The notes: a model not told the origin generated them from the letters alone. DNA of 55,619 bases from Candidatus Bathyarchaeota archaeon (GCA_963770935.1 CAVYRJ010000010.1:1-55619), one strand, 5' to 3'; counted from the first letter of the stretch, positions 2,180-30,996 are shown. Numbers and translations are program-made.

Positions 2180-2977
2180 GTGAAGTTTATGCGTCAAGTT
2201 GACATGACTAGGCTTGACTTATCAACGGGAAAAGCAGAAAAAACTAAGGATTGCGTCGCAGAAGAGGTTCCTCTCCAAATCACCTTAAACACAGCTTACT
2301 CGTTTGTTATTTGGTGTTCACCTTCGCAATTCAAGGAACTGGCGGTTGGTTACTTACTCTCTGAGGACATTTTGCAGATCGGTGGATGAAATTCAAGAGT
2401 TGACCTCTAACGAAGCACAGATCAGCTGCCAAATCAAGCTAAAGCCAAGCGTGGACCTGGATGAACGCATGAAAAACTCGCGTCGAAGCACCCGCATTAT
2501 CCCACTCATTAAAGCCAGCACCTCAGCATACCAACATGACGAAAAAATCTCCAAAGTAAAATCCAAACTCACAATTAAAGCCCAAGTCATACTTGATGCC
2601 GTTAACCAAATGAACGAGAAAGCCAAAGGCTTCAAAGAAACCGGCGGCTTACATGACTCAGGCATCTTCAAAGCAGACGGCACCATGGTTGCCTTCTCCG
2701 AAGACGTGGGCAGACACAACACAGTTGACAAAGTCATCGGGCAAGCATCGCTTAGACAAAGTAGAATTTCGCTGAATGCTTCATGTTTATCACTGGTCGT
2801 GTGCCGGGTGACATGATTTACAAGGCAGCCAAAGTTGGTTTACCCATCGTGGCTTCGGGGGCCGCAGTTTTGAATTCTGGGGTTTCGTCGGCGGAAAAAG
2901 CCAATATTACGTTGGTTGGGTTTGTGCGGGGCAAACGCATGAACGTTTACACTTGTCCAGAGAGGATACTGCTGTAG
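2180..2977 (+). CDS. fdhD: FdhD/NarQ family cofactor-maturation protein (two apparent frameshifts, near 2375 and 2760)
   Basis: VAEEVPL, ELAVGYLLSE, FKETGGLH, EDVGRHNTVDKVIG, TGRVP, TLVGFVRGKRMNVY. Confidence 0.88.
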
Positions 2978-4260
2978 GTGCTCACTGTGAATAGACCAGA
3001 CATTAAACGCTTGCCCAAACGCACAAACCCCATGGAGGCACAAAAACAGCTACTTGATGCTGTCCACTCAAACGTAATGTCAAGCGAAAAGGTACCGTTG
3101 CAAGACGCGTTAGGCAGAGTCTTAGCGCATGAAGCTGTTTCGAATGTTAACATTCCTGATTACGATAAAACCTTCATCGACGGCTATGCGATCAACACAT
3201 CTGACACCAAAGGCGCCTCAACCGCCAAACCTGCTGCCTTCAGAGTTATCGGTAAACTATTCCCAGCCGACTACCCGACCCCAATCGAAGTCACCCATGG
3301 CAAAACCGTCTACGTCGCATGCGGAGCACCCATCCCCAAAGGCTCAACCGCTACAGTGAAAGTCGAAGAAACCCGCTTAAACGGTGACCAAATCGAAGTT
3401 ATCCGAGAAATCCAGCCAGGCGAAGGAATAATTCCGCTTGGAGACGACATGAAAAAAGGCGATTTGCTCCTCAAAAAAGGACAGGTTTTAAGACCCCAAG
3501 ACATCGGCATCCTTGCATCCATTGGACTTCTTGAGGCTGAAGTGGTTAAGAAACCAAAAATCGCCATACTTTCAGGCGGAGACGAACTCATAAAGCAATG
3601 CGATAAAAACCCCGAGAAAATCGCCAATAATTACGCTCTTGTCGTTGCAGGTTTAGCCTCTGAACTTGGCGCCGAAGCGGAAATAGCAGGAATTATGCCA
3701 GATGCCTTGGAAAAAGTCACAGCAGAAAATCACTGAAGCCCTCGCCAAAGCAGATGTTGTTGTTACGATTGGCGGGTCATCGGTTGGCGTTAAAGATTTT
3801 GTTCCAGACGCTGTCAACGCTCTGGGAAAGCCAGGCGTGGTTGTGCAGGGAGTCTCGCTGCGACCAGGCGCAATCTCAGGTTTCGGCATAGTGAACGGCA
3901 AACCCGTGGTTATGCTGCCAGGGCATATTGGCTCATGCATCGCTGGATTCTACCTTTTCGCGGCGCCCTCTAATCAGCCGCCTCCTCGGCTATGAAGGCG
4001 ATGGGTTGCTTCCGAAACTGACTGCTGTATTAGCGGAGGATTTGGAGACTGGTCCGCAATTCCGTTTCCAGCTTGTCCACATAAAACGGGTTAATGGGAA
4101 ACTTGTGGCGGAACAAGTTGAAGGCGGCTCCAGTGCCCTGACTACAATCGTTAAATCAAATGGGTACACAATAGTTCCATCCCACACAACGCTGGTAAAA
4201 GGCATCGAAATTGATATTTGCTTGTTTGGTAAACTTGAGTTCTCCAAAATGAGTGTTTAA
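2978..4260 (+). CDS. moeA: Molybdopterin molybdotransferase (apparent frameshifts near 3725 and 3965)
   Basis: ALGRVLA, DGYA, CGAPIPKG, SGGDEL, GGSSVGVKDF, MLPGH, GSSALTTIVKSNGY. Confidence 0.9.
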
Positions 4261-5345
4261 GAAACTTTACGGGAATACCTGTGTGTGTGGCTTTGTTTTC
4301 CCATAGCCCATGACTCGCACCAAGCCTTGTCTGCCAACGCTCGCTCAGCAAGGAGCAAACAGCGGTTGTTTTCGTAGACTTCGGCTTCCTGTCGGTAGTT
4401 GTTTGCTGCCCGTAGATAAGTTTCTTTGCCTTCAAAATCCAATACCGCGCCCGATTTGGATTCCAATTGTTTGTGTGCCAAAGTTAACAAAACCTCTCCA
4501 AGGTTTTCTTTAGCTAATGCAGCCCAAAAAAAAGAATCACAAACTTCAAAGTTGCTCGAACAAAACGCAAAAATTTTCTGAGCATCCAAAACCTTGCCAT
4601 CATGGAACATCTTAGTTCCCTCTCTAAGAAGCCGTAAATCACAAATCGACGAAACCCCCAAGTTTAGCGTCACGTTTTCCATAACTGGTCCATGGGAAAG
4701 GTGGATTTGCAGCCGTTTTAAGTCTTCTTTGGAGTTTATGTTTATAAAGCTTCTAAGTTGTGGGTCAAGATTTTTTATGTGGTTAACCGGGGAAACAAGC
4801 AGGGTTTTGCTGGCACCCCTTGGGATGTCGTCTGAGCGTGGACGATTAAGCGTGCACAATGTTTCTGTGATTTCTAAGGCGCTAGGGCGTTCAAGCACCA
4901 TCATGAGAGTTTCAAGCCTCCCGTTAGGCCACATTGGAACAGCCATCTCAAACCCCTCTGCCTCGTCGAACAAATATTCAGCAACTTTCGGGTTCAGAAA
5001 AGGCATGTCGCAGGGCAAAGTAAGGCAATAATCTGATTGAAGAGCCTTTAGCCCCGTCATAATTGCTAAGTTGGGACCGCTGATATGACTGATTTTCTCA
5101 TCAACAACAATCCTGAAATTAGAAACCGAGTATTTTTCTAAAATTTCAACATATCCTGCCTTTCGTTCTTCGTCATTTACGCATACAACGACTTCGTCAA
5201 CAACGTTTCGAACGTTTTGGATGGCGTGAATAAGCAGGGGTTTTCCATTGAGTTCTGCAAGGGCTTTGTCCTGCCAGTTTTGACCCTTCGATTGGAACCT
5301 GCGGGCTTTTCCACCTGCCAGTATGAGTGCAGCCCGTTTGAACAT
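4257..5345 (-). CDS. mobA: Molybdenum cofactor guanylyltransferase with a C-terminal helical extension of about 140 aa
   Basis: LILAGGKARRF, DKAL, GP..AIMTGL, LPCDMPF, FININSKEDL. Confidence 0.85.
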   Translation of the reverse strand: MFKRAALILAGGKARRFQSKGQNWQDKALAELNGKPLLIHAIQNVRNVVDEVVVCVNDEERKAGYVEILEKYSVSNFRIVVDEKISHISGPNLAIMTGLKALQSDYCLTLPCDMPFLNPKVAEYLFDEAEGFEMAVPMWPNGRLETLMMVLERPSALEITETLCTLNRPRSDDIPRGASKTLLVSPVNHIKNLDPQLRSFININSKEDLKRLQIHLSHGPVMENVTLNLGVSSICDLRLLREGTKMFHDGKVLDAQKIFAFCSSNFEVCDSFFWAALAKENLGEVLLTLAHKQLESKSGAVLDFEGKETYLRAANNYRQEAEVYENNRCLLLAERALADKAWCESWAMGKQSHTHRYSRKVS

Positions 5346-5354
5346 GCCGCTTCC

Positions 5355-5918
5355 TCAATTTGAACTTTTTTGGTCTGGCTTCATTTCAAATTGTTTTTTG
5401 ACTAATGCCACCAGTTTTTGTCCTTCTTCTGGAATTTTAATTATTGGAATCTCCTTGTACGAGGAGTCCGTAGCAGTCTTGGCGACTATTCCTGTAATCG
5501 CTATAATGGGGTCTACAGTACCTTCCAAAGTTTCCGCCAAGCCATCCTGGTTTTTTGCAGTAATTATCTTGGCTACGTCCTCTCTTTTGGCGATCAAACT
5601 ATGGAAACCCTCGATAAAGACAATATCCAGTCTCTCATTTGCAATTAATGTTGTCATCTGGTCTAATTCGTTGAGTGCTAACTCGGTTTTTTTGATTATG
5701 GCTACCTCTTCTGGCGATACGGCTACTATGACTTTGGCACCTGCTTTGGCATATCTCCAAGTGTTCGTGCCCTCTTTGTCCATGGTAAAACCTTTATGGT
5801 GTACATGTTTTATTGAACCGATTTTGTAGCCTTCTGCCGATAGTTGAGAAATTAAGTATTCTAATGTGACTGTTTTTCCTGAACCGCTGACGCCGACGGC
5901 GGCGATAACTAAAACCGT
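5355..5918 (-). CDS. mobB: Molybdopterin-guanine dinucleotide biosynthesis protein B, copy 1 (apparent start is ACG)
   Basis: Open frame upstream of the tracked ORF gives VLVIAAVGVSGSGKT...GYKIGSIKHVHH...MDKEGTNTWR; IEGF motif. Confidence 0.85.
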   Translation of the reverse strand, partial: TVLVIAAVGVSGSGKTVTLEYLISQLSAEGYKIGSIKHVHHKGFTMDKEGTNTWRYAKAGAKVIVAVSPEEVAIIKKTELALNELDQMTTLIANERLDIVFIEGFHSLIAKREDVAKIITAKNQDGLAETLEGTVDPIIAITGIVAKTATDSSYKEIPIIKIPEEGQKLVALVKKQFEMKPDQKSSN

Positions 5919-6203
5919 TACCTTTCACACTCCGCTTCTGAATCAACGGGGTTTGGCTTTTATAAATTATACCTAAACTCCACTTAATCTTGACATGTTT
6001 AGACTCAAATATCCAAACTATGCAGAAAATTATAGGTGAAGGGTAGGGGCAAAACAAGCAAAGCGCTTAGGATAGGTGGGGAGGGGATGTATTGTAAAAT
6101 TGTCTTCCGTCATTACCTAATAAACATAACTCTCCCGAAAAGCCAGCCAAAGCAAGCATTAAGCTTAATTTTCCACACACCCATACACAAGCAGTGAAAC
6201 AAT

Positions 6204-6533
6204 ATGTGTCCCCTGCGCTACGCAATTAAACTCTGGATGGTCAACGACAAAAACGAAGCCGTCTTCGGCGACGGCTTAGCCGAACTCCTACAAGAAATCT
6301 CTGAGTACCACTCTATTCTGAAGGCAGCCCAGCATGTAGGCATGTCTTACCGCTATGCGCTACACAGAATCACGCTAGCTGAGGAGAGGCTTGGGCAACT
6401 TCTGGTTACGCGAACTCGCGGCGGCGCCAAAGGCGGCGGGTCCTCTGAAGTTACCGAGTTCGGCAGGGATTTGGTGGTTCGTTTTAAAAAGGCTCAGGTG
6501 AACCTTGATGGGGTCGTAAGCGAGCTTCCATAG
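6204..6533 (+). CDS. modE: ModE-family wHTH regulator (DNA-binding domain only, no molbindin domain)
   Basis: VFGDGLAELL..I....SI..AA...GMSYRYA...I...E..LG..LV...RGG..GG.S.VT. Confidence 0.85.
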   Translation: MCPLRYAIKLWMVNDKNEAVFGDGLAELLQEISEYHSILKAAQHVGMSYRYALHRITLAEERLGQLLVTRTRGGAKGGGSSEVTEFGRDLVVRFKKAQVNLDGVVSELP

Positions 6534-6569
6534 ACAGTTTTGTTGTGGTGGGATAAGGTTTATTTTTAG

Positions 6570-6593
6570 CGATGTTACAAGTTGATAACATCG
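6570..6593 (+). promoter_or_regulatory. ModE-like operator just downstream of a TATA-like box
   Basis: Perfect palindrome CGATGTTA-N8-TAACATCG right after AAGGTTTATTTT and 10 nt before the ATG at 6604. Confidence 0.65.
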
Positions 6594-6603
6594 ATGTTTT
6601 GCT

Positions 6604-7177
6604 ATGGACCCCCAAAACCAATACCTGCAAAAAAGCTACCTCAAAATAGCCACGAGCCGATTTAGTGTTGATGGCGCTTTTTGCAAGTTTAGGTTTAGCC
6701 ACAAAAAACGTCATCCATCCCCTTGTCGCAACTATTACGGGGCCTCTTTATGTACCCACGGGAGCAGTTGCAGGCGGCATTTACATGATGTGGCCTGTGC
6801 TCGCGCATGGGTTAACGCGCAAAATCGGCGCAGCGTCCATGGTTTCACTTATACAGGCCTTCATAAGCCTGCTTTTGCCATTCGGCAACTTTGGACTGCT
6901 ATCATTCGTGATCTATCTGGCACCCGGGTTAGCTATAGATGCTTTCCTGTTGCTTTCAAGACACAAAGCCTGCTGCATAGCTTGCTGTACCGGAGCATCA
7001 GCAATTGCTAACGTCGTCGGAACCATTCTGGTTGGCACATTGGTGCTGTTTTTGCCTTTGGGTGCGTTGACGTTTTTAGCGGTGGTTGCAGCAATTAGCG
7101 GTTGTATCGGCGGTTTCATCGCAAACATGCTTTTGACTCGTATAGGAAAACTTGGCTTAAGGAGACAGAAAACATGA
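6604..7177 (+). CDS. ECF-transporter S-component-like membrane protein with a CCxxCC motif (apparent frameshift near 6655)
   Basis: About 6 TM helices; N-terminal T.DLVLMALFASLG signature typical of S components; HKACCIACCTG. Confidence 0.7.
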
Positions 7178-7682
7178 AACGAAGCATAATCATAGTGGTA
7201 GTGATTTTTGTCTTTTATTGGTTGCGGTCATGCCGCTTTACAACTACACTCACCCACAATCAGGCACAACAGACGAAGCGTCACTGCAAATTCGAGGCGA
7301 AGTCGTCAACCTAACAAACATAACGTTGACACAGCTAAAAAGCTACACGTCGACCACAGTGCAGGTTACGCTTTCCTCCAGCAGCCGACCCCAAGACAAC
7401 GGCGTGTTCGACTACACAGGCGTCACATTAAAAACGTTGCTGGATAAAGCCCAAGCATCAGCCAATGCCACATCCGTTTATGTGCAAGCCTCAGACGGTT
7501 ACGGGTCAACAATCCCAATCCAAGATGCTCTAAACGAAAACACCATAATCGCATACCAACGCAACGGCACAGCCCTTACAATGCTAAAAGACAATGGGGA
7601 AGGACCACTCCGACTAATCATTGCCAACGACCAGTTTGCGCAGAGATGGATTCGAGGCGTGGCAGCTATAGAGGTTCGCTGA
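7174..7682 (+). CDS. Membrane-anchored single-domain sulfite-oxidase/MsrP-fold (Oxidored_molyb) protein (frameshift near 7210)
   Basis: ATGA overlap with the S-component stop; hydrophobic N-terminus; YTGVTL..LL, ASDGY, AYQRNG, GEGPLRL, RWIRGV..IEV. Confidence 0.78.
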
Positions 7683-8184
7683 GGGCTTTTTGCTCCACCA
7701 AATCAGCCAACTCCTTAACGGCTGAGAAACTGTTAATTGTTGGTACCTTTAGGTTGGAGGCTTTTTGAGTTTGATTTTCGGATTGGGTTATTATGCCTGA
7801 GATGGCGATGACGGAGTTGTCAAGGTAGCTTTTGGCTTCCTCCACGGTTTTAGCCGCTATGATTTTGGGCAAGATTTTTTCTGTTTCAAACCCTTCTAAA
7901 ACCACGTAATCCATCATATTGCAGTATGGCAAAATCTCGTGCAAGTTGAGGCGTTTTTTTATGAAAACCACCGTTTCCTGTCTTGGAACTGCCACAACGA
8001 TTTCTGCTCCCGCTTGCGTGTACCTGTCGGTTTCAGTTTGAGGAGTGTCAAGCGTGGGAATACGAACCATCTCCTTGATTGTGCCAACACGGTAGCCGCG
8101 GCAATTTAACTCAGCGATTAAGTGCTCTATAATTGTGGTTTTTCCTGAATGTTTTCCTCCGATGACTGCAACTATTTTAGGCAT
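7666..8184 (-). CDS. mobB: Molybdopterin-guanine dinucleotide biosynthesis protein B, copy 2
   Basis: VIGGKHSGKTT, GYRVGTIK, LEGF. Confidence 0.85.
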   Translation of the reverse strand: MPKIVAVIGGKHSGKTTIIEHLIAELNCRGYRVGTIKEMVRIPTLDTPQTETDRYTQAGAEIVVAVPRQETVVFIKKRLNLHEILPYCNMMDYVVLEGFETEKILPKIIAAKTVEEAKSYLDNSVIAISGIITQSENQTQKASNLKVPTINSFSAVKELADLVEQKALSEPL

Positions 8185-8239
8185 TTTTGCATCGATACAG
8201 TGTTAGCGCTAATGTTTGATATATGCCTTAATGCAACAG

Positions 8240-9260
8240 CTATGCTTCTACGACTTTTGCATCTTTGAGCACGTTAACTTTTCCGTCGCCTTGAGTTACG
8301 TAGCCGACTTCGCAGAACGTAATTTTGCGTTTAGAGAGCTCACTTTGAAGGTCATCAGCGTCTTGTTTCCCGACGGCGATAAGCATACCGCCGGCTGTTT
8401 CTTTGGATTCGCCAGTCAACAACGGATACCCAAAAATGTCGGTCAACGTGGGAGTACCGCGGATAACCCATAATTTATCTATAACTATGTCAACTTTGCC
8501 CAGCATCGCCATGTTAGCCGCATGACCTTTGAGCCCAAACCCCGTAACATCGGTTGCTGCATGAACGGGCACTTGCTGCATGGCTTCCGCCACAGGCTTA
8601 TTAGAAGTAATCATGCTCGTCGATTGCTTGGCTAACCGCTGCCTCAACCAAATCCTCAGGTACACCTTCCAAGAGTTCTTTGCCTTCCTCTTCTTTGCGA
8701 AGACGGTAAGCGGCCATGGCAGGCGCAATCCCCAATGGCTTAGTTAGGAAGAGTTTGTCGCCGACTTGAGCGCCACGGGTGTACACTATTTTTTCGGGGT
8801 CGCCGATGCCGGTTGCTGCACCGCCGATGATAGGCCAGGGGTTGCGGATAGTGTGTCCGCCGACGACTGGGGCGCCCATTTCGCGGCAGAAATCTCCAAG
8901 CCCTTTAAGCATGCCAACGGCTAATTCGTCAGGCATATTTTCAGGATAAGCCATAATCGTCAGAACACTTGGAATCTTTGTGACGGCTAGGGCGTAGATA
9001 TCGCTGGTTACGTTGCTGCCAGCTATTCGACCTTGAATTTCAGGCTCGTCAACCATCGGAGTGAAAAAGTCCAGAGTATTTAGCACCGCCATGCCTTCGG
9101 CGATTTTGACGACGCTGCTGTTTTCCCAAGCGCCAGCTAAAACGTCCTCTTCGTATCCGCAGCTTAACCCAGCTTTTTCCAGTAAACCGCCGAGTTGGTA
9201 CTGGGGGAGTTTACAGCTACAGCCGTGGACGGGGACAACTTTAGTTAACCTATAACTCAT
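8240..9260 (-). CDS. selD: Selenophosphate synthetase, Cys-type (apparent frameshift near 8615)
   Basis: HGCSCKL N-terminus, LDFFTPMVD, NVTSDIYA, VGGHT, LTKPLG, ATDVTGFGL.GH, ETAGGMLI. Confidence 0.9.
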
Positions 9261-9286
9261 TTTGTTTTTCTCCTCTGTAATTTACT

Positions 9287-9301
9287 ATTAAATAAGTTGA
9301 T
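9287..9301 (-). promoter_or_regulatory. Putative LysR box upstream of selD
   Basis: ATTA-N7-TGAT (T-N11-A) between a TATA-like element and the start codon; similar boxes at 10676 and 11337. Confidence 0.45.
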
Positions 9302-9340
9302 GTGACGATATAAAAATTTAATAAAGAAAAAGACAGGAGT

Positions 9341-10633
9341 CTACTGCTCCTTTTTGCTCTGGATAATTTCTAGGAAAGCTTCAACACGGGTTTTGATTTG
9401 CGTAGCATCACCCATCGCGTAGTCGGTTTCGATTTTCAGCATCGGTATGTTTTCCGACTTCAATGCTCGGTCCACTTTGACGCCCTCCACGTTGTAGTCA
9501 TGACAGTTCTGCAATGTATAGTAGATTACGCCGTCAGCTCGAAATTGCTTAGCAAGGTCCCTGACGCTTTGGATTCTGCGGTCGTTGGGCGTAAAGCATG
9601 CACAGGAAATCTTGCTGTATTTCTCCACTATAGCCCACAACAAGTCGTCGAGGCTGTCACTTTTAGGCTCCACCAAATTCGTGAAGTAGCGGGTGCCCAC
9701 GCAGCTTTCTTCGGTAACCACGGTGGCGCCGGCTTCTTGAGCGATACTATGTAGTTTCCAGTTGGGAATAGCCATAGGGCAACCTGAAATCATCAATCGT
9801 GGCGCATCTTTGGGGGCAACGTCGACGCCGTTTTTGACGCGTTCGTCGAGTTCATCGCAGAGTTCGTTAACTTTGGCGGTGAAGCGAACGGGGTCATCGT
9901 TGAAGCTGATTTGGTAGATGAGCAACGCATCTAAACCACTAATGGGGGATGGATTATTCTGGCGTAGATCAGAGAGGCGTTTGAGAGCTTTACGTTTGTT
10001 GTTAATTAACTCGATTGATGCTTTGAGTTTCTCCGCGGTTATCTTATTGCCGGTGAGTTCTTCCATTTTGGCTTTGAAGGCTTCAACTTCTTTTAACCAG
10101 AATTCTTTGCCTTGTTGAGTGTCTGGTTTATGGGGGATTTCAATAACATAGGTTGGGATAAGTTCGTTTAAGAGTTCGTAGACTTTCTTTTTGCCGTCGC
10201 AGGTGGTTTCACCTACGACGAGGTCGCTGGTTTGGAAATAAGGGCAGGTTTTGTTGAGTTTGAAGCCATAAAAAGATTTGATTAAAGGGCAGAGGTTGCG
10301 GGGTATTATTGCTTCAGCGTCGGGGATAGAGAAATCTGCGCCACCGCACAACCCAACCATTGTTGCGTCCGCCGCGTATGCGAGTTCTTCTGGTGCATAG
10401 ATGCAGAATGCGCCAACTACTTTTTTCCCTGCTTTTCTAGAATCGTTGAGTTCTTTTATTCTTAAGCCGTGGATTTCTGAGACGACGAAGTCAAAGTAAC
10501 CCATTGCTTTTGGTCTGTTCTTCTGGGTTAGGTATATGGCTCCGTAGTACTGTCCTAGGATGTCAAGGAGTTGGTTGTGTCTTTCAATATCCATTCCGAG
10601 AGATTTCCACATTTCTAAATATTTTTCTGCCAT
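9341..10633 (-). CDS. Double-cubane-cluster protein / 2-hydroxyacyl-CoA dehydratase family reductase
   Basis: GAFCIY, GLCGG, NLCPLIK, CPYF, ETTCDGKKK, SGCP, EESCVG, CACFTPN, QNCH, IETDY, TRVEAFLE. Confidence 0.85.
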   Translation of the reverse strand: MAEKYLEMWKSLGMDIERHNQLLDILGQYYGAIYLTQKNRPKAMGYFDFVVSEIHGLRIKELNDSRKAGKKVVGAFCIYAPEELAYAADATMVGLCGGADFSIPDAEAIIPRNLCPLIKSFYGFKLNKTCPYFQTSDLVVGETTCDGKKKVYELLNELIPTYVIEIPHKPDTQQGKEFWLKEVEAFKAKMEELTGNKITAEKLKASIELINNKRKALKRLSDLRQNNPSPISGLDALLIYQISFNDDPVRFTAKVNELCDELDERVKNGVDVAPKDAPRLMISGCPMAIPNWKLHSIAQEAGATVVTEESCVGTRYFTNLVEPKSDSLDDLLWAIVEKYSKISCACFTPNDRRIQSVRDLAKQFRADGVIYYTLQNCHDYNVEGVKVDRALKSENIPMLKIETDYAMGDATQIKTRVEAFLEIIQSKKEQ

Positions 10634-10675
10634 AAACAATCACAAACCGTTGGAACGGGTATTAAAAATCACACT

Positions 10676-10690
10676 ATTAAAATTTTTGAT
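10676..10690 (-). promoter_or_regulatory. Putative LysR box upstream of the double-cubane protein gene
   Basis: ATTA-AAATTTT-TGAT, preceded by ACT as at the selD site. Confidence 0.45.
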
Positions 10691-10718
10691 AAACATTATT
10701 AGAAATATTGATGAAGAC

Positions 10719-10952
10719 TTAGTGTTTCCTAATCAACAATTTGAACTCCTCACCAGACTTGACAGCTTCAACCACTTCATGACCATTATTTTTAACCCAA
10801 CGCTGAATATTGTCAAGCTCCAACTCCCCCCCACCAATAACCTCTAGTAACTGCCCCGCTGCCATGCTCATCAGCTTGCGCTTGGTAAATGCAACTGGCA
10901 AGGGGCACATTTGACCCTTAACGTCCAACTTCTCAATTTCCAAAATCTTCAC
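10719..10952 (-). CDS. tusA: TusA/SirA family sulfur (or selenium) carrier
   Basis: LDVKGQMCPLP motif; 77 aa. Confidence 0.88.
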   Translation of the reverse strand: MKILEIEKLDVKGQMCPLPVAFTKRKLMSMAAGQLLEVIGGGELELDNIQRWVKNNGHEVVEAVKSGEEFKLLIRKH

Positions 10953-11302
10953 TAGAACACTATTACTTTATCACTATTTACTGTCCACTCGACTAGTTCA
11001 TGCACCGTAGCGATTTTCACCCCATCAAACAGATCAGCTTGGGTTATGCCACGTGCTTCAATGCAGACTACACAGGCTTTCACTTCGACGCCGCCTTGAA
11101 TTAAATTTTCTAGATTTTGGCCGTAGTTGATTAATCCTTGAGCAGGTTTTTGTCCTTTCTTTGCAAGGTAGACGCCGTTTTCGAATAACCAGATTTTTAC
11201 TTTGTGTCCTTCTATGTCGCAAGTTGCGGCGAATCTTAGAGCTGACATTGCGCGTTCTTGTGCATATGGGGCTTCGTTTATTATCAATGTGAATGTTACC
11301 AG
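10952..11302 (-). CDS. DsrE/TusD family sulfur-relay protein (probable CTG start)
   Basis: EAPY..ERA..ALRFA, LFENGV, VKACVVCIEARG, ELVEW..SDKVIVF; GAGGTTGG ribosome-binding site 7 nt upstream. Confidence 0.8.
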   Translation of the reverse strand: MVTFTLIINEAPYAQERAMSALRFAATCDIEGHKVKIWLFENGVYLAKKGQKPAQGLINYGQNLENLIQGGVEVKACVVCIEARGITQADLFDGVKIATVHELVEWTVNSDKVIVF

Positions 11303-11336
11303 ACTGTTACCAACCTCAATTTTTCTGATAGTTATT

Positions 11337-11351
11337 ATTAAAAAAACTAAT
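11337..11351. promoter_or_regulatory. Putative LysR box in the divergent dsrE/lysR promoter
   Basis: ATTA-N7-TAAT; AT-rich context weakens significance. Confidence 0.35.
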
Positions 11352-11426
11352 ATAAGTATTTTCCAAACAAAAAGCAAATATTACATAAACAAACATTCTA
11401 GAACACATAAACAAAGGCAAAACGGC

Positions 11427-12360
11427 ATGGAAACAATAAGGTTCGATTATCTCAATACCTTCCTCACAGTTGCCAAAACACGCAGCTTCTCAGCGGCAGC
11501 CAAAGAACTCAAAACAAGCCAAGGCACGGTCAGCCATCACATCGCTGCACTCGAAGCATATTTTGACGCTGAACTCTTCAAACGCGCTCCCAACGGCGTA
11601 GAAGTCACCGACGCAGGAGCAACCCTGAAAGAAACTGCAGAAAAAATATCTCCAACAAGCTCAAAACGCAAAAGCAAAAATTTCCACAGCCAAACTAAAT
11701 TTAGCAGGTACAATAAGAATCGCTGCAAGCACCATTCCGGGAGAACACATAATTCCCAGCTTAATCGACGAATTTCAAAAAAAGTATCCCGAAGTAAATT
11801 TCAAGATAAAAGCCGAGGACAGTTTAAATAGCTTAAACAGCCTGCAAACTAACGCCGCAGATTTTGCAGCGGTAGGAACCATTCAAGGTTTTGAAGAGAA
11901 ATTCGATTTCATCCAAATCGGAGAGGAACAATTGGTTCTAGTTGTTCCTTGTAATCACGAGTTAGCCCAAAATAAAATTGCCAAGCTAAGTGAAATCCTC
12001 CCACATGCATTCGTTATTCGTGAAGAGACTTCAGGAACAAGACTGGAAATCGAGCGTTTACTGGCAAAAAACAATGTTCAGCCCCAGAAGTTGAAGGTAG
12101 TTATGGAGCTTGGGAGCACCGAATCGATAATTACCGCGGTTTCAGAAGGCAGAGGAATAAGCATAATCTCATCAATTGCCGCCAAAAAAGCCCAAGCAGC
12201 AGGCTTAACAAAAATTATCAAAATTGAAGAATCAAAAAGCCCTCGAAAACTCTACATGGTAAGACCTAAAAGGCAGCTTCTAAAAACTTCTGAGACTTTC
12301 TGGGAATTCTGTAAGGAGTATAGATTCAAGAACGAAGTTATCTCCTGCCCCTCAAGTTGA
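11427..12360 (+). CDS. LysR-family regulator (CysL-like type, often found beside selenium-metabolism genes); frameshift near 11645
   Basis: SFSAAAKEL..SQGTVSHHI..LE, IAASTIPGEHI, REETSGTR, ELGSTESI. Confidence 0.88.
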
Positions 12361-12375
12361 CTTATTTATCCAAAG

Positions 12376-13311
12376 CTAAGTTACGATGATTTCGCTTACG
12401 AATTTAACCCAGAACTGTGCCCACTTGTACTTCTCCACCGGACAAAACAGCCTGTACGGTCCGCCTTGACTTTGCCCCAGATGACTGCCATTTTCCTCAA
12501 ATCCAATTAGCATATTTGAATCTTCCACCTCTTGCAGAGTATAGTTTTTCACGTAACCGTCAATGGCAACAATCGTTATTTTTTCAGCTCTATAAGACAT
12601 GTTTGCGGCGTCCAGGACGTCCAACATAGATATGCCTGTCCAGTTTGAAGTTCTTTCTCCATCTCCAGGTACAAATGCTGCATGAACGGTTTCTTGCTGG
12701 AAGTTAGTTAAGTTTCTGCTGCTAATCGTCAGTGGCTTAGCGACTGCTCCTGAGATGGACACTGTCCAACTCTCGACGTTCACTTCAGCGACGTTATCGA
12801 TTTGGTATTCCGAACCAAAAGAGGGGGTGATTAGTTTTACTGGTCCCCCTGCCTCCTGGGTCATCCATTCGCCGTTTTTGACAAAGGCTAACACTATGCG
12901 GTTGCTTTCTTTATAATAGGGATACGCTGTGCTGTTCCATGCTTGAAAAATGTTCAAAGCAGCACTTTGCCCATCCGTTGATATTACTTTGATTGTTTGA
13001 GTGTCCCACATGGCACCTGTTTTATTGCAGAAATCGACGAGTGCGACGCCTTCAAAAGTTGCGTTTTCACCGTTAACTTCAGCAGTAGCGCGTGTTAGTG
13101 GCATTTGAGTTATTTCTTCTAATGTCCAAGTTTTCTGCTGCTCAACGTTACCGCTAACCTTGATTTGCCACTCTGGGGCTACACCGTCTGGCACCTTCAC
13201 TTGAGGTGCAGTTTGCGCCCCGTTTGGGTAGTAAAGGCTGGTTGATGCCATAGTTATGGTTACTATTATTGCGATTAGGATTATGCTCACTATTTTTGTT
13301 GTTTTTTTCAT
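12376..13311 (-). CDS. Membrane-anchored two-domain sulfite-oxidase/MsrP-fold protein
   Basis: N-terminal TM; two repeats of (F/W)xG, DG(Q/Y), NG, GGP(V/Y)(K/R)L; ends FWVKFVSEI. Confidence 0.75.
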   Translation of the reverse strand: MKKTTKIVSIILIAIIVTITMASTSLYYPNGAQTAPQVKVPDGVAPEWQIKVSGNVEQQKTWTLEEITQMPLTRATAEVNGENATFEGVALVDFCNKTGAMWDTQTIKVISTDGQSAALNIFQAWNSTAYPYYKESNRIVLAFVKNGEWMTQEAGGPVKLITPSFGSEYQIDNVAEVNVESWTVSISGAVAKPLTISSRNLTNFQQETVHAAFVPGDGERTSNWTGISMLDVLDAANMSYRAEKITIVAIDGYVKNYTLQEVEDSNMLIGFEENGSHLGQSQGGPYRLFCPVEKYKWAQFWVKFVSEIIVT

Positions 13312-13375
13312 ACTATTACTATCATTCTCCTAGTAAAGTGCAAAACTTGGTTGAACACTTTTTTAACCTGGTTAC

Positions 13376-13399
13376 CGATATGTTTTAGTAGGCACATCA
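13376..13399. promoter_or_regulatory. ModE-like operator, degenerate
   Basis: CGATATGT-N8-GCACATCA in a divergent promoter. Confidence 0.45.
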
Positions 13400-13446
13400 G
13401 ACCAGTTTAATAATCTTTCGAGAAAACACTTGAAGGTCCTCACAGG

Positions 13447-14509
13447 ATGCGTGCATTCAGCCAAGGAAAAACCACACTTTGCATTAGAATTGCGCTGATA
13501 TCTTTGATTTGTTTTGCTTTTATGGAAGATTTCAGTTGTGCTCAAATCGCCGCAACGTCGTCAACGACCAAGTTTTCAATAATTTGGATAACTGACACTC
13601 AATATCTCTCTGAAAGTTACCCGCGTTATTACGATAGTCTCTGCCGATGGATAGTCGAGAACAAGGAAAGCTACAACGTTAAAATGGTCATACACACAGG
13701 CGACATGGTTGAGGACGAGTTCAATCAGACTCATTGGACCAACGCAAACCACGCCCTGAGTCTACTCTTAGATAACGACGTTCCATACTGCTGGAACGCT
13801 GGCAACCATGACTATAACACGACGTATTGGATTGGAAACCAGTATACAGCCTTCAACCCGACTGTTATGGCATCCAAGTCTTATTGGGTTGGCGACAAAT
13901 TTAACGGACAAAATACAGCTGTTCACTTTGCTGTTTCGGGAAATGATTTTTTGGTGTTAAACATAGCCTACCAAGCAAACGAAACTGCACTCTCATGGTG
14001 CAACCAAATTTTAGATTCCTATCCAGATTCTCATGCAATCGTCGCCACCCATATGTATCTGAACACTACGGGTGGATACGGGGCTAAAGGAAAAGATAAC
14101 CTGACATGGGCAAGCAACTTCAAAGACACTGTGCTGGACACGCATGCTAATGTGTTCTTAACACTCAGTGGACACTACTATCCCTACCTCCGGAAGCAGA
14201 ACACAGGTTGGCGGTCGGCAGGAATTAATGTTCAATCGTCAAGTTGTGGACAGTGAAATGGGGGCTGCAAGCCTTAGAATTTTGACATTTGATCTCAAAG
14301 AGGGTTTGATTGATGTCAAAACTTTTGTTATTTACGCTAATAATTTCTTGGCGGATTCAAACAACCAGTTTACCCTTGAAACAGACTTCTATAACCCGGC
14401 AATCCCAGAGTTACCTGTTTGGATAGTCGGGGCACTATTCGTTGTAATTCTGCTAGTTGTGCTTGAGGCAAAAAAATGGGTGCGCAAGCAATCTGTAATA
14501 TTGTCATAA
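13447..14509 (+). CDS. Secreted calcineurin-like metallophosphoesterase with a PEF-CTERM-like anchor (frameshift near 14185)
   Basis: Signal peptide; DTQ, HTGD, GNHD, THMY, SGH motifs; C-terminus IPELP + TM + basic residues. Confidence 0.78.
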
Positions 14510-14556
14510 CAATGTTGCTTTTTTGGGTTTGATTGTTTGTCTGCTTTATAGCTAGA

Positions 14557-14580
14557 CGAAATGCTTTTATGTACATATCG
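14557..14580 (+). promoter_or_regulatory. ModE-like operator
   Basis: CGAAATGC-N8-ACATATCG upstream of the 14618 gene and the wtp genes. Confidence 0.55.
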
Positions 14581-14617
14581 TTGAAATTCAACTCAAGACA
14601 AGAAAGGAAGAAGAAAA

Positions 14618-16175
14618 ATGAATAAGAAAATCTTAGCAATCGCAGTCATACTAATCGTTATAGTAGCAGTTGTTGCTGCATGGCAAGTTCCCCCTCTACT
14701 GACAGGCGGAAACAAGAATCCTAATGTGCCTTCGCTTTCACTGACCCTAAAAGGCGCTACCGGAGAAGAAAAAGTACTCGACGAAACCGACTTTGCTGAT
14801 CTGACAGCTATAACATCGCAAGGCGGCTACAAAACCAGTGGCGGGGTAATCGCTACTGTAGGTAGGTTTACAGGTGTATCTGTTCTGAGCCTCTGTGATT
14901 TAGTCGGCGGAATGTCCAGCGATGCTACATTAACCGTGATAGCATCTGATGGATACTCGATGGTTTTCACTTATGACCAAGTAAACGGACAAGACTTTAC
15001 AACGTATGATCCAATAACTGGCAGCGAAAAAGTCGCCACACAACCCTTAACATTAGTAGTCAACTACCTGCACAATGACACAGCATTACCATCAGAAATT
15101 GGACCCCTGAGAATGGGTGTTGTGGGTTCTGAAGGATTACTAACGGAAGGTCACTTCTGGGTGAAAAAAGTATCGACCATAGAAGTTACTCCAAATGTTA
15201 GAGACTGGACAGTTAGTGTTGAAGCCACATCAACTCTGAGAATGGATCGCCAAGCATTAACGGCTGACCTCAACCACTTCGGCGTAAACTATACTGATTC
15301 AAACGGAAATGTCTGGACAGGCACAGCGTTGTGGCGATGGGTATCTTGGAGCAACTACAACGGCGGCGTAACAAACGCGACCTTAGACAAAGGATACAAA
15401 GTCAAAATTATCTCTGGCGACGGAACATCAGCAACCTTCGACGACAGTGAAGTCAAACTAAACGACGACATTATTGTTGCTGCAAAACTCAACGATGCAG
15501 TATTAACCGTGCCATATTGGCCATTAACAATGGTTGGACCTGATGTCACCTCAGCAAAAGCAGTTCAGAACATCATAAAAATGCAAATCATAATTGACCC
15601 CATCAGCTACATCAACGCCTTCACCAACACCCACGCCTGCGCCTACCGCAGCACCAACTGCCGTTCCTACACCCAGTCCAACCCCAGCTCCCACACCAAT
15701 ACCTGTTGTCATGCAATTGACTTTAGTTGCAGCTAACGGAACTCAATACGTTATAGATGAAACGGCAATGGCAAGATTCACTGCTATTACAGCTAACGGC
15801 GGAACAAGGTCAAGCTCAGGAACTCTTGCAAACTGGGGGGCATACACTGGAGTACCTATAATGACACTTTTGAATTATATTGGTGGCGTAACAAGCAGTA
15901 ATACTGTAAAAGTAACTGCTTCCGACAGCTACACAAATACGTACACCTACCAGCAAATAAATGGACAGGGCATAGCAACATACGATTCCTCTGGTACTTC
16001 CGTGACACCGACTCAGGGTTTGACGATGGTTGTCGCTTGGTATCTTAACGGAACAGCGTTAGACTCAGGCGTTGGACCACTACGAACTATGTATGTAGGA
16101 TCAGAAGGACTCTACTCAAGCGGTAATCTGAATGCGAAGATGACGACAAAGATCGAAATTATTACTCCACCTTAA
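14618..16175 (+). CDS. Membrane-anchored three-domain sulfite-oxidase-fold protein with a Pro/Thr linker (frameshift near 15600)
   Basis: N-terminal TM; three repeats of xTGV/xTGT, ASDGY/SGDG/ASDSY, GPLR/WPLT; TPSPTPTPAPT linker. Confidence 0.72.
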
Positions 16176-16197
16176 CTGCTTAAACGGCTACTAGACA

Positions 16198-17283
16198 ATG
16201 AATCGAAAACATATACGGCGCTTGCAGCAATCGTGGCAGCGACACTGCTGCTGTCATCCACCTATTTTTTTGTTTTAAGCAATATAATTCCAAACAAACT
16301 TAACAATATTCTGTGCAACAAGCCTTCAATATCCCCTTCCGCCAAGTGGAGGAAGACTTCGAAAAAGCATACCCAAATGTTGATGTGCATCTTGAAGCGC
16401 ACGGAACAATACAAGTTATTAGGCATGTAACTGAATTAAACTACAAAGTCGACGTGGTGCTTGTGGCAGATTACTCGTTGATTCCACGAATGATGTACAC
16501 CACAACAGATGCCTGACAGCAACCAAAGTTACGCTGATTACTACCTTAGATTTGCCACCAACAAGTTAGTCTTAGCCTACACCAACAGTAGCGATTATGC
16601 CAGCGATATTAACTCAAACAACTGGTATCAAATTTTAACTCGTCCAAACGTACGATTGGGTTATGCTAATCCGCAACTTGACGCCTTCGGGTACCGTGCT
16701 TTAATGGCAATCCAGTTAGCTGAGGATTACTACAAAGTTCCACGTTTCTTCCACGATCTAATTACCGCAAACATGAATCCGCCCATAAGTTCAGTCCCCG
16801 AAGGATCAAATTACACAATACTTGTTCCTGAGATACAAAATTCTGTTGGAGATAAACTTACAATGCGCGCAAGTGAGGTTGACTTGATTGCTTTGCTTGG
16901 AAACAGGCTACCTTGATTACTGCCTCCTTTACCTCAGTAATGCTCGGCAATATGGTTTTAACTATATTGAGCTTCCAGACGAAATCAACTTAGGCAACTC
17001 GGAAAGCGAGCCAACTTACGAGCAAATCCAAGTCAAATATGACCACCAGAGGTTTGCAACTGTAACGCTTGACCGAACTGGAGAAACCATCTATTACGGT
17101 TTAACCATTCCCAAAAATGCCCCAAATCCACAATTGGCTGAGAAGTTTATCGACTTCTTGTTGAATGGTCAAGGGAAAACCGATTTCCAAAACCAATTCC
17201 ACCCCGTTTATAACCCATCGTTCACAGATAACCTTGAAGCATTACCAGCGAGTTTACGGTCTTTGGCTGTAAGTGAGCCCTAA
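16198..17283 (+). CDS. wtpA: Tungstate/molybdate ABC transporter substrate-binding protein (several apparent frameshifts)
   Basis: EAHGTIQVIRHVTEL, ADYSLI, FATNKLVLAYT, DAFGYR, LPDEINLG, IYYGLTIP..APN. Confidence 0.85.
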
Positions 17284-17325
17284 TGCTCCAAACAAGCTTG
17301 CTCATAAGCTTCAAAGAATTTACTA

Positions 17326-18144
17326 ATGGGAGGCACAAAAGTGGCTTGGCTTAAGGAAAAGTCTTGGTTCCTCATAGTCTCGTTTGTTTTAGGTCTTCTC
17401 ATGGTTTTGTTTTTAGTAGTGCCAGTCATTGGTTCTTTGGCAAGTTCAGCCTCTGGGATTCCATCAGTTTTAACTGATTACCGAACACTAAACGCGATAG
17501 GGACAAGTTTCTACTGTGCATTCATCGCAATGGCGCTTATGTTGCTTTTAGGTGTTCCATTTGCTTACATGTTTGTCCGCAAAGAATTCTTCGGCAAAAA
17601 AGTCTTAGACTCACTAATTGACATACCAATTTTAATACCGCACAATACAGCTGGTATTGCCTTGCTAACAATCTTTAGCCCAACTTATCCAATTGGAGCA
17701 GCTTTTGCTAGCATTGGAATAGGATTCATTGACACCATCTGGGGTATAGTAATTGCCATGGCTTTCGTAAGCGCCCCCTTCATGATTAGAAGTGCCCAAG
17801 AAGCATTTTTATCCGTTGACCCCTCGATGGAGAAAATGGCGCGGGGCTTAGGTGCAACACGCTTCAAAGCTTTCAGACATGTTACTTTTCCTTTAGCCTC
17901 AAGAGGAATCCTAACTGGTTGCGTGTTAACTTGGGCAAGAGCAGTAAGCGAATTCGGCGCCGTCATATTGCTTGCTTATTTCCCAAAAACAGCACCCGTG
18001 TACCTCTACGATGTGTTTGTAAGCCAAGGATTAAACGCTGCGCTCCCAATAAACGGGCTTCTCATTTTGCTTGCCATCGTAATTCTGATTGTTTTTAGAT
18101 TTGTGATTTCCAAACCAAAAAAGAACGCCTACGCCAAACTCTGA
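17326..18144 (+). CDS. wtpB: Tungstate/molybdate ABC transporter permease
   Basis: DIPILIPH..AGIALL, E..ARGLGA, WARAVSEFGAV..LAYFPKTAP. Confidence 0.88.
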   Translation: MGGTKVAWLKEKSWFLIVSFVLGLLMVLFLVVPVIGSLASSASGIPSVLTDYRTLNAIGTSFYCAFIAMALMLLLGVPFAYMFVRKEFFGKKVLDSLIDIPILIPHNTAGIALLTIFSPTYPIGAAFASIGIGFIDTIWGIVIAMAFVSAPFMIRSAQEAFLSVDPSMEKMARGLGATRFKAFRHVTFPLASRGILTGCVLTWARAVSEFGAVILLAYFPKTAPVYLYDVFVSQGLNAALPINGLLILLAIVILIVFRFVISKPKKNAYAKL

Positions 18145-18158
18145 GGTGAAGATGAAAG

Positions 18159-19213
18159 TTGACGCTTGTCCTGAAGAATATAACTAAAAATTGGGGAAGC
18201 TTCGCACTGAAGAATATTAATCTATCCATCGCCAGAGGAGAATACCTTGTTCTGCTTGGACCAACAGGGGCTGGAAAAACGCTTCTTTTGGAAACCATAA
18301 TGGGCTTCAATATTCCAGATGAGGGCAGAATCATAATAGACAACCAAGACGTCACAAACGTTGCTCCTGAAAAAAGAGGAATCGGCTATGTCCCACAAAA
18401 TTCAGTGCTCTTTCCCAACATGACCGTGACGCCAAAACATTGTTTTTGGCTTAAAAATGCAGGGCAAAGACAAGGTGGAACAAGATAAAACGGCGGATGA
18501 ACTGCTTAATTTGGTAGGGCTCAAGCATGTTGAGCATCGTTTGCCTGATGGGCTTAGTGGTGGAGAAAAACAGAAAGTAGCCTTGGCGAGAGTTTTAGCG
18601 ATTGATTCGAGAATAGTTTTGCTTGATGAACCATTAGCTTCTATGGATGCAGAAACGACGCGGCAACTGAGGGCTGAACTGAAAAGAATACACAAGGAGC
18701 ACGGCAAAACCGTAATTCATGTTACCCATAGTTTGATTGAAGGTTTCGGTTTAGCTGACAAATTAGCGCTTATGATGGCTGGTGAGATAGTCCAAGTTGG
18801 CGAGGCAAAGGAGTTATTAGCTAAACCTAAAAACGAGTTCACTGCGCGACTTCTCGGTTACGAGAACATTTACAAAGCTAAAGTTGTGGAGAAGGGCCCT
18901 GATTTTTCGATTTTAGACGTCGAGGGCGTGAATCTTAGAGTTTCGGGTGCCGTGGATCATGTCGGGTTGGTTGCTGTGCAACCTGAGAATATAACCGTTG
19001 AATTATCATGCCCCAACGTCACTAACGCCAATGTCTTAAAAGGCCGCGTTACTGACTCTGTGGATTTAGGTCCATTTGTAATGGTAACCGTCGAGGCTGG
19101 CTTACTGTCTAAAAGTCGTGATGGCTAAAAATTTTTTCATCGAAAACGGACTTGAAGATGGCAGAGTAGTTTGGCTTAAATTTCAATTTAACACAGTAAA
19201 AATAATAGAGTAA
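18159..19213 (+). CDS. wtpC: Tungstate/molybdate ABC transporter ATPase with TOBE domain (frameshifts near 18430 and 19110)
   Basis: GPTGAGKT, IGYVPQN..LFP, LSGGEKQ, LLDEP, HVTH. Confidence 0.87.
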
Positions 19214-29911: not shown

Positions 29912-30005
29912 GCCCTGATTTTTTCTCTAGTCCGTTATAATATGATTAGACTACTATGTGCTAAAACGGGTCTAGAGTAAAGGTTCCTAAATCTACTTAA
30001 CTAAA

Positions 30006-30043
30006 GTTGTTGGTTGGATTAAATTTTAATCCCCAAACCCAAA
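30006..30043. repeat. Island palindrome copy A
   Basis: GTTGTTGGTT-GGATTAAATTTTAATCC-CCAAACCCAAA; perfect 8-1-8 palindrome at 30016-30032. Confidence 0.85.
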
Positions 30044-30164
30044 TAGAAAATTCTTCTATCTGTGACTGCGCATAAGCTATCACATTGTTTTAAATTCAGC
30101 ACTAAACGGAGTTACAATGTGAAGTCTAGATTATACGAAATTTTCCCTATGGAGGTGAAAGCTC

Positions 30165-30428: not shown

Positions 30429-30488
30429 GAAAAGTTGTTGTCCAGCGCAAATGTTTTTGTGCAACAGTTTATCCTCTTTTCCCTTTTT

Positions 30489-30517
30489 GGATTAAAACTT
30501 GGTCCCCAAACCTAAAA
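30489..30517. repeat. Island palindrome copy B (degenerate)
   Basis: GGATTAAAACTTGGTCC-CCAAACCTAAAA. Confidence 0.7.
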
Positions 30518-30925: not shown

Positions 30926-30996
30926 AAGAAAAATAGCAAACACTAAAATAAGGTAAATAAAATATTGATAAAGTGCATAAACAACCTGAGAAAGAC

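Follow-up and report, generated by a model that had tools for sequence, protein, structure and literature searches.

The DNA studied here (the window) is the whole of contig C10, 55,619 nucleotides long, from the 1.98-Mb genome of a Candidatus Bathyarchaeota archaeon (GCA_963770935.1, CAVYRJ010000010.1; 18 contigs, 91% complete; denoted G000 below). Between 2.3 and 19 kb it carries a gene cluster built around an energy-coupling factor (ECF) S component, designated S, and three membrane-anchored proteins, X1, X2 and X3, composed of domains with the fold of sulfite oxidase (SUOX) that lack the cysteine expected to bind molybdenum. From the sequence comparisons presented here we propose, with moderate confidence, that its products form an importer which salvages the molybdenum/tungsten (Mo/W) pterin cofactor, taking up molybdopterin as such or in a metal-loaded or nucleotide-linked form. 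The cluster begins with FdhD and MoeA (both fragmented), followed by MobA (-), a second MobB-like gene (-) and a gene for a 109-aa helix-turn-helix (HTH) protein resembling the N-terminal part of ModE; it continues with S, X1, MobB (-), SelD (-, split), an HGD-D protein (-), a DsrE-like protein (-) and a split LysR-type gene, and ends with X2 (-), a metallophosphoesterase (split), X3 (split), WtpA (split), WtpB and WtpC (partial). The main features are as follows.

2978..3736 (+): MoeA, N-terminal part only, apparently a split gene in the assembly (PF03453 MoeA_N, E 8.8e-37)
4257..5345 (-): MobA-like nucleotidyltransferase, 362 aa (PF12804; NCBIfam MobA models below their cut-offs)
5355..5924 (-): second MobB-like gene (MobB profile of the related loci, E 4.7e-64, open frame 5358-5924; TIGR00176 42 bits, below cut-off)
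6204..6533 (+): ModE-N-terminal-like HTH regulator, 109 aa, without Mop domains (PF00126 HTH_1; TIGR00637 57.9 bits, cut-off 98.5)
6570..6593 (no strand assigned): operator-like perfect palindrome with 8-nt arms and an 8-nt spacer, between a TATA-like box and the start codon of S
6604..7177 (+): S, ECF S component of about 190 aa with the RHKACCxxCC motif, frameshift near 6656 (PF09819, 48.3 bits)
7174..7682 (+): X1, membrane-anchored single Cys-less SUOX/PruR-fold domain, frameshift near 7213 (PF00174, 65.9 bits)
7666..8184 (-): MobB (PF03205, 82.9 bits; TIGR00176 96.4 bits, above the cut-off of 76.2)
12376..13311 (-): X2, N-terminal anchor and two Cys-less SUOX-fold domains (PF00174, 108.2 bits, two stretches)
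13447..14509 (+): calcineurin-like metallophosphoesterase, frameshifted (PF00149; N-terminal signal-like and C-terminal hydrophobic segments)
14618..16175 (+): X3, three Cys-less SUOX-fold domains with an anchor and a Pro/Thr-rich linker; the reading frame changes between 15604 and 15705
16509..19128 (+): WtpA (two pieces), WtpB and WtpC (partial), tungstate ABC transporter (best matches NCBIfam TIGR03730/NF003196, NF040839 and NF040840)

An earlier interpretation of this region made from the DNA alone (the sequence-only reading) had placed the S and X genes among mobA, mobB and moeA, with X3 directly upstream of wtpABC, and both statements were borne out by the genes listed above (MobA, two MobB genes, MoeA_N, and WtpA/B/C after X3). 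The Wtp matches fall below the NCBIfam cut-offs because the genes are fragmented, and WtpA probably starts at the ATG near 16199, as judged by eye. Relatives of the cluster were collected by scanning one genome per species, which yielded 164 stretches encoding an S relative, and the best 80 of these were kept and make up 79 loci. Group A (L001-L037) is mostly from Bathyarchaeia, and group B (L038-L079), at about 40% identity, is from Clostridia, Actinomycetota, one Asgard archaeon and others.

The S protein (6665-7177) matched PF09819 with 48.3 bits against a cut-off of 25.2, and this family was present in 120 of the 120 S homologues among the matches listed. Its profile gave a weak match to YkoE (5edl, E 0.2). 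The unusual motif HKACCIACC, to which the sequence-only reading had drawn attention, is present in S of the window, and HKACCxxCC with its four cysteines was invariant in 10/10 aligned relatives; in the wider set nearly all Bathyarchaeia have RH[KRQ]xCCxxCC and most bacteria have H-R-x-CCxxC. The coupling of S to X1 was also read correctly, the TGA stop of S overlapping the ATG of X1 at 7174 (ATGA). The hydropathy and the Lys/Arg pattern of P0001, the best intact S homologue (190 aa, 97% identical), fit six helices with both ends in the cytoplasm, with 11 of 12 Lys/Arg residues at the N-terminal end, in loops L2 and L4 and at the C-terminal end, and one in L1; the CCxxCC motif follows the RHK loop. 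The ECF module that such a component would need, and whose genes the earlier interpretation had left to be located, is encoded elsewhere in G000, as an ecfA-ecfA'-ecfT operon at C1:17674-20167.

We then analyzed the X proteins. X1 (7218-7682) matched PF00174 with 65.9 bits, and its AlphaFold2 (AF2) model (pLDDT 89.6) retrieved with Foldseek both SorA (E 3.8e-9, TMq 0.76) and PruR (7kom, E 6.3e-9, TMt 0.79), as did the X1 family profile (SorA 8e-9; PruR 1e-8 and 3e-7). In X2, PF00174 was matched over two stretches. Residues 1-372 of X3 had no Pfam match; an AF2 model made from an alignment with 42 homologues (pLDDT 87.1) shows two domains, of which the first resembles SoxC (2xts, Z 14.8, rmsd 2.5, 137 residues aligned) and the second PruR (7kp2, Z 15.3, rmsd 2.2, 121 residues aligned; a second PruR match has Z 15.0), and domain 3 of X3 is 43% identical to its domain 1. 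The count of six SUOX-fold domains in three proteins given by the sequence-only reading is therefore right, and the six strings quoted there for the former ligand position (VTLSSSS, AEVNGEN, AAFVPGD, GGYKTSG, YTDSNGN, GGTRSSS) are all present in the translations. Intact homologues of X3 are 516-650 aa long. The structural matches of the X domains include SorA, SoxC, sulfite oxidase, YedY and PruR, and the non-catalytic pterin binder PruR fits as well as the SUOX enzymes do.

The loss of the Mo-ligand cysteine, as claimed earlier for the window, extends to the whole family. No Cys was present among the 25 residues that precede the invariant Gly of YTGV in any of the 37 aligned X1 relatives; in a wider set, 1 of 54 sequences had one. 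Cys104 of SorA and the Trp of PruR both align to the Ser-rich TLSSSS stretch, in a weakly aligned segment of the family profile, and the domains of the window carry Ser, Asn, Ala, Lys or Thr at this position; X2 has only two Cys, at residues 95 and 290, and neither is at the ligand position. Four further open reading frames (ORFs) of G000 match the X1 family profile with E values from 2e-19 to 4e-13 (C8:289925-290767(+), C8:16566-17153(-), C1:81309-82118(-) and C5:54495-55148(+)).

These data bear on the possibility of a redox or sensory role of the X proteins outside the cell, in which a non-Cys ligand, for example the conserved Ser, would hold a pterin or the molybdenum cofactor (Moco), and S and the ECF module would serve or anchor the X proteins instead of bringing in cofactor for enzymes of the cytoplasm. 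A Ser is found at position 54 of window X1 in 31/37 relatives, and databases name the X homologues molybdopterin-dependent oxidoreductase, YedY or YedYZ catalytic subunit, names that are probably wrong. In some bacterial operons a membrane protein with Fer4_5 and FMN_bind domains lies among the X genes (L046:4292-5470(+)), which hints at extracellular electron transfer, e.g., keeping a pterin reduced, or at a redox role of some X proteins. Against this, the X domains are compact (about 135 aa), Pfam yields only PF00174 in X1, X2 and X3, and neither a dimerisation domain in these proteins nor a heme or MsrQ partner among the annotated neighbour families was found. Furthermore, the ECF systems known to us are importers, and such a redox role would leave unexplained how AOR enzymes are supplied in genomes without MoaA, MoaC and MoaE (see below). 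We regard it as very unlikely.

Linkage was counted from ORF maps and profile searches. An X domain was encoded in 70 of the 79 loci and was adjacent to or fused with S in 56 of them, which answers the question, raised in the sequence-only reading, of whether the CC-motif S component and these domains occur together. The counts by group are as follows.

X-domain ORF in the locus: group A 36/37, group B 34/42
X adjacent to or fused with S: group A 34/37, group B 22/42
MobB: group A 28/37, group B 15/42
ModE-N-like gene: group A 30/37 (upstream of S), group B none found in 42
EcfT: group A 2/37, group B 26/42
ABC ATPase genes: group A 6/37, group B 31/42
PF01663-like phosphodiesterase: group A none found in 37, group B 17/42
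Metallophosphoesterase: group A 4/37, group B none found in 42

The typical order in Bathyarchaeia is the ModE-N-like gene, S, X2 and X1, then MobB, MobB, MobA, MoeA and FdhD, and in bacteria it is X genes, S, often a phosphodiesterase, X, EcfA, EcfA', EcfT and MobB. Two bacterial loci encode a fusion of S with X, namely L038, in which both form one protein of 364 aa (PF09819 and PF00174 by Pfam), and L044, which was found by profiles; in L039 S is fused to a phosphodiesterase (Pfam). A PF01663 nucleotide pyrophosphatase/phosphodiesterase follows S directly in L045 and L046, and a calcineurin-like metallophosphoesterase lies between the X genes in the window and in 4 group-A loci. The presence of two unrelated exported phosphoesterases at the same place suggests extracellular trimming of a ligand that is phosphorylated or linked to a nucleotide.

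The MobB-like neighbours are often fused to other domains. In Ca. Bathyarchaeum tardum one of them carries an FeS domain (PF04060; L023:8162-8938(-)), and in three Clostridia loci a MobB with an S-adenosylmethionine methyltransferase domain (L042:4804-5955(+)) lies directly upstream of an S protein of 371 aa, the C-terminal half of which has no Pfam match.

The presence and absence of genes for making and using the cofactor was analyzed in the source genome and its relatives. Six-frame searches of G000 (91% complete) revealed neither MoaC nor the MoaA C-terminal domain, and no PF00384 enzyme was found; the genome keeps three AOR genes, MoaE, MoeA_N and the ecfAA'T operon. Its MoaE gene looks intact (C1:179487-179822(+)) despite the missing MoaA and MoaC, and may represent an intermediate stage of pathway loss or the sign of a different imported intermediate. 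In a class-wide sample of 251 genomes, which includes an order-level part of 68, MoaC was found in 201 and MoaA in 198, and a strong match to the S profile (E <1e-70) in only 10. Six of these 10 lack both MoaA and MoaC, i.e., G000, G151, G157 and G193 (genus g1) and G090 and G098 (genus g21); their completeness is 90-99%, and G090 consists of one contig. Within the order-level part both genes were missing in 6/9 S carriers versus 2/59 non-carriers. The same pattern was observed inside each genus: in g1, S is present in 4/4 genomes without MoaAC versus 1/9 with them, and in g21 in 2/2 versus 0/4. The five MoaAC-less S carriers other than G000 all have intact AOR frames of 487-645 aa (5/5) and none has MoaE (0/5); G157 and G193 keep MoeA_N, which G151, G090 and G098 lack.

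G090 is Ca. Bathyarchaeum tardum M17C-01, a cultivated archaeon with a closed genome (locus L023). It has AOR, whereas MoaA, MoaC, MoaE and MoeA were undetected, and S, X2, X1 and two MobB genes, one of them the FeS fusion, lie side by side. In group B, 10 of 41 S-carrying genomes lack MoaC, and all 10 also lack MoaA; 8 of these 10 encode PF00384 enzymes, two of which have an in-frame TGA as in selenocysteine formate dehydrogenases, and 6 encode PF02738 enzymes. One of the 10, the genome of L045, is that of an isolate. The uptake of preformed cofactor proposed in the sequence-only reading thus gains support from the loss of the cysteine, the co-occurrence of S and X, the ecf genes and the absence of MoaA and MoaC, and the import of cofactor may account for the persistence of the enzymes in these genomes.

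In the window only the S operon is preceded by a perfect 8+8 palindrome (arms 6570-6577 and 6586-6593, by palindrome search), and 30 of 35 Bathyarchaeia loci have a matching 24-mer in the corresponding position. The sequence-only reading had placed ModE-like boxes before all three X-bearing transcription units; this held for the S operon, whereas upstream of X2 and X3 the repeat search found no such palindrome, and only imperfect look-alikes were seen by eye near 13373-13397 and 14559-14582. The regulator scores above the PF00126 cut-off and below that of TIGR00637 (57.9 versus 98.5 bits), and its HTH may be of the N-terminal ModE type; HTH_1 is its sole Pfam family, and the Mop/TOBE molybdate-binding domains are absent from its 109 aa. 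In loci L001-L030 a GltD-like gene (Fer4_20 and Pyr_redox_2) and a DHODB-type Fe-S gene are often found divergently upstream of the regulator, in 17 and 15 loci, respectively, by clustering. In bacteria the Moco riboswitch RF01055 was above the gathering threshold in 7 of 38 loci scanned (L041, L045, L055, L062, L067, L069 and L070), where it heads the string of X and S genes and shares the strand of the operon; L045 is thus both MoaAC-less and riboswitch-bearing. None was found in the window. The Moco riboswitch controls genes of Moco synthesis and molybdate uptake, and its location at the X/S operons ties these to cofactor supply.

A supplier of metal would suit this regulation equally well. 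If the system imported an oxyanion (tungstate or molybdate, perhaps as thio-forms in sulfidic sediment), with the X domains and the Cys motif binding metal rather than pterin, then the Moco riboswitch, the ModE-like control and the MobB and WtpABC neighbours would all be in place; the Cys-rich motif suggests soft-metal binding, and metal-specific ECF transporters are known. The sequence-only reading had kept an oxyanion as an alternative ligand. Uptake of an oxyanion, however, cannot stand in for MoaA, MoaC and MoaE where these are lost and AOR is kept, and it fits poorly where MoeA is gone as well, as in B. tardum. In addition, tungstate is already served by WtpABC in the window, the fold of the X domains is a pterin-binding fold, and extracellular phosphodiesterases, some of them fused to S, have no part in oxyanion uptake. 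We consider this alternative unlikely.

A pterin or vitamin of another kind (a folate or methanopterin precursor, thiamine or hydroxymethylpyrimidine) has a low probability too, if a shade higher; in that case the link to the Moco genes would be regulatory or coincidental. PF09819 includes YkoE, and JGI names many S homologues thiamin/hydroxymethylpyrimidine permease subunit, a name which is probably wrong for them. PruR relatives bind pterins of the neopterin or monapterin type, and B. tardum is described as deficient in several cofactors and dependent on a methanogen (PMC10477458); the main text of that description makes no mention of molybdenum or tungsten. On the other side, the neighbours are MobB, MobA, MoeA and ModE-like genes and not genes of folate or thiamine metabolism, the riboswitch is of the Moco class and no thiamine pyrophosphate or tetrahydrofolate riboswitch was reported in the Moco-riboswitch scans of the bacterial loci, S resembles YkoE only weakly, and the presence and absence of S tracks MoaA and MoaC.

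Several observations weigh against salvage of the Mo/W pterin cofactor. First, the system is not confined to auxotrophs: MoaC is kept in 22/37 group-A and 31/41 group-B genomes that carry S, and in the class sample S occurs alongside both MoaA and MoaC in G187, G217 and G229, and alongside MoaA and only a weak MoaC match in G007. The expected loss of moaA and moaC was thus found in G000 and five S-carrying relatives, all of which keep AOR, and not in most carriers, so that the system would be more than a mere replacement for synthesis. Second, G072 and G118, high-quality genomes of the same order, lack MoaA, MoaC and an S of this type and have 4 and 6 AOR hits, respectively; their X-like hits belong to a different family, start without an anchor, are apparently cytoplasmic and have no S nearby. 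The statement that every AOR-bearing MoaAC-less genome carries S was rejected on these two genomes. Third, most of the genomes are metagenome-assembled and related ones are not independent, and the losses behind the pattern number only a few independent events, not six or ten.

Fourth, by the positive-inside rule CCxxCC would lie at the cytoplasmic start of transmembrane helix 5, and with such a placement it is unlikely to be part of an outward-facing substrate pocket; the motif is also absent, within the 79-locus set, from a bacterial subclade (L045, L046, L051, L054, L055, L067 and L076) and from L037, L060, L065 and L077. Fifth, the predicted complex of S with X1 lends weak support: it scored 0.46 against 0.00 for the best of three controls, and the runs agreed in at least 89% of contacts and the partner had a pLDDT of at least 78. 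Of 80 solved complexes 58 reached the mark used for such scores, as did 2 of 110 mismatched pairs; among these, only 7 of the 80 solved complexes and both mismatches scored at or below 0.60. Sixth, PruR binds small pterins other than Moco, so the fold does not name the ligand. Seventh, the genes retained vary. G000 keeps MoaE and MoeA, so that cyclic pyranopterin monophosphate (cPMP) or metal-free molybdopterin is possible there, and B. tardum has neither, which points to the finished cofactor as the import; the imported species may differ between lineages. As a general substrate cPMP, which the MoaE of G000 had suggested, was dropped, as MoaE is present in 0/5 of the other MoaAC-less carriers.

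Last, four genes of the system (S, X1, X3 and the phosphoesterase) have shifted reading frames in the assembly, and if the shifts are real, this copy is decaying. The genes described by the sequence-only reading are accordingly not intact here. S is frameshifted near 6656: P0001 is intact and starts at the ATG equivalent to 6604, so the window S must carry a one-base shift. The anchor of X1 (ATG 7174) is out of frame with its body from about 7213, the frame of X3 changes between 15604 and 15705, and that of the phosphoesterase changes near 14183-14253, where a tblastn search with an intact homologue spans 13420-14253 and 14183-14395 in two frames. A decaying relic in G000 would be compatible with any functional reading, and we give it little weight. 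Unrelated genes of the window are split likewise (MoeA, FdhD, SelD, LysR-type, WtpA and WtpC), and for this reason the shifts look like assembly errors rather than decay. Public contigs about 97% identical to the window have one base fewer at 6656 (3 independent runs) and one more after 7213 (2 independent runs), which restores the frames of S and X1; they come from other strains and hence are no proof. Moreover, G000 has AOR genes without MoaA and MoaC and would need the system.

In all, apparent single-base frameshifts split at least 10 genes within 2304-19128 of the window (FdhD, MoeA, S, X1, SelD, LysR-type, metallophosphoesterase, X3, WtpA and WtpC). SelD (split), the HGD-D family protein and the DsrE/TusD-like protein form a block on the reverse strand at 8240-11377, and by clustering they recur beside the S-X cluster in other Bathyarchaeia (SelD in 14/79, HGD-D in 8/79 and DsrE in 10/79 loci); a sulfur or selenium link to the cofactor is possible. 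Outside the cluster, 30001-36000 has a low GC content (0.35-0.38 versus about 0.44) and ORFs without Pfam matches, and a tRNA gene (53933-54017) adjoins a phage-type integrase gene (54088-55365(-)); this low-GC stretch and the region 53933-55365 may be integrated elements.

With these reservations, the salvage of the Mo/W pterin cofactor may be pictured as follows. The anchored surface proteins X1, X2 and X3, with one, two and three Cys-less PruR-like domains, would bind the pterin outside the cell, and the surface phosphoesterase would strip nucleotide or phosphate groups from the forms that other cells release, a task which in the bacterial relatives would fall to the PF01663 nucleotide pyrophosphatase. 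X1 would then pass the ligand to the YkoE-type S, and import would be driven by a shared EcfA-EcfA'-EcfT module whose genes lie at another place in the genome. Inside the cell, MobB-like GTPases, perhaps together with the cytoplasmic Cys motif, could receive the cofactor. Where the genes are retained, MoeA and WtpABC would load the metal and MobA would add the nucleotide, before insertion into AOR-type tungstoenzymes. In Bathyarchaeia the adjacent ModE-N-like HTH protein probably represses the operon at the promoter palindrome, and in bacteria the Moco riboswitch would exert the control.

Taken more broadly, we give slightly better than even odds to a dedicated prokaryotic salvage of the Mo/W pterin cofactor of the ECF type, in which some Bathyarchaeia (including B. 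tardum), Clostridia and Actinomycetota would be true auxotrophs, molybdopterin a vitamin traded in anoxic communities, the Cys-less SUOX domains the first extracytoplasmic capture proteins of an ECF system, and MobB with the CCxxCC motif its receiving end. As far as we know, the Mo/W pterin cofactor is generally viewed as too labile to share and as something that each prokaryote using it makes for itself, and a dedicated importer would overturn this view; AOR, formate dehydrogenase and enzymes of the xanthine dehydrogenase type would run on a neighbour's cofactor. It would also account for genomes with tungsto- or molybdoenzymes and without MoaA and MoaC, give a concrete reason why organisms like B. 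tardum resist pure culture, assign a job to MobB, and fix a widespread misnaming, both of molybdopterin-dependent oxidoreductase/YedY and of thiamin/hydroxymethylpyrimidine permease. In the literature searched, no description of a prokaryotic ECF importer of Moco or molybdopterin was found.

The nearest known relative of the X domains is PruR of Agrobacterium tumefaciens and other Proteobacteria (PDB 7kos, 7kou, 7kom, 7kp2 and 7rkb). PruR was experimentally shown to be a Cys-less periplasmic pterin binder with a SUOX-like fold (PMC11194511). The X domains share with it a compact exported SUOX-like domain without the Mo-ligand Cys and without catalytic additions, and from their sequences may work like PruR, yet they fail two of its features. 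The SUOX Cys is replaced by Trp in PruR and by a Ser-rich stretch in the X family, and PruR pairs with the cyclic di-GMP enzyme DcpA in signalling, whereas X pairs or fuses with an ECF S component among Moco genes; no DcpA-type GGDEF-EAL sensor was among the annotated neighbour families of the loci, where the neighbours are S, EcfAA'T, MobB and the phosphodiesterase. The X domains are also membrane-anchored and often in tandem, and the ligands of PruR are small non-Moco pterins. With the SUOX molybdoenzymes (sulfite oxidase, SorA, SoxC and MsrP/YedY) the X domains share the Moco-binding fold and, largely, the DGY, NG and GPLR-type motifs; unlike these enzymes, they have no Mo-ligand Cys, only a short loop after that position, no dimerisation domain and no heme or MsrQ partner.

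On the transport side, YkoEDC is the group I ECF thiamine/hydroxymethylpyrimidine importer of Bacillus subtilis, with YkoE (PDB 5edl) as its S component. The membership of PF09819 is common to both systems, and the bacterial relatives of the cluster likewise have their own EcfA-EcfA'-EcfT beside S; the likeness in sequence is nevertheless weak (E 0.2), and in Bathyarchaeia the ECF module is encoded elsewhere, in a group II-like layout. To our knowledge, YkoEDC has no H-[KR]-x-CCxxC motif, no surface binding partners, no phosphodiesterase, no MobB and no Moco-type regulation. Nematodes reportedly take up bacterial Moco, and a study of Haemonchus contortus is said to have found Moco synthesis lacking; they would share with the carriers described here the possession of Moco-dependent enzymes without the genes of the first step of synthesis and the reliance on the cofactor of others, and differ in being eukaryotes with a transporter of another kind. 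Set beside these systems, the cluster would be an ECF vitamin importer with a new class of substrate and with dedicated surface domains for its capture.

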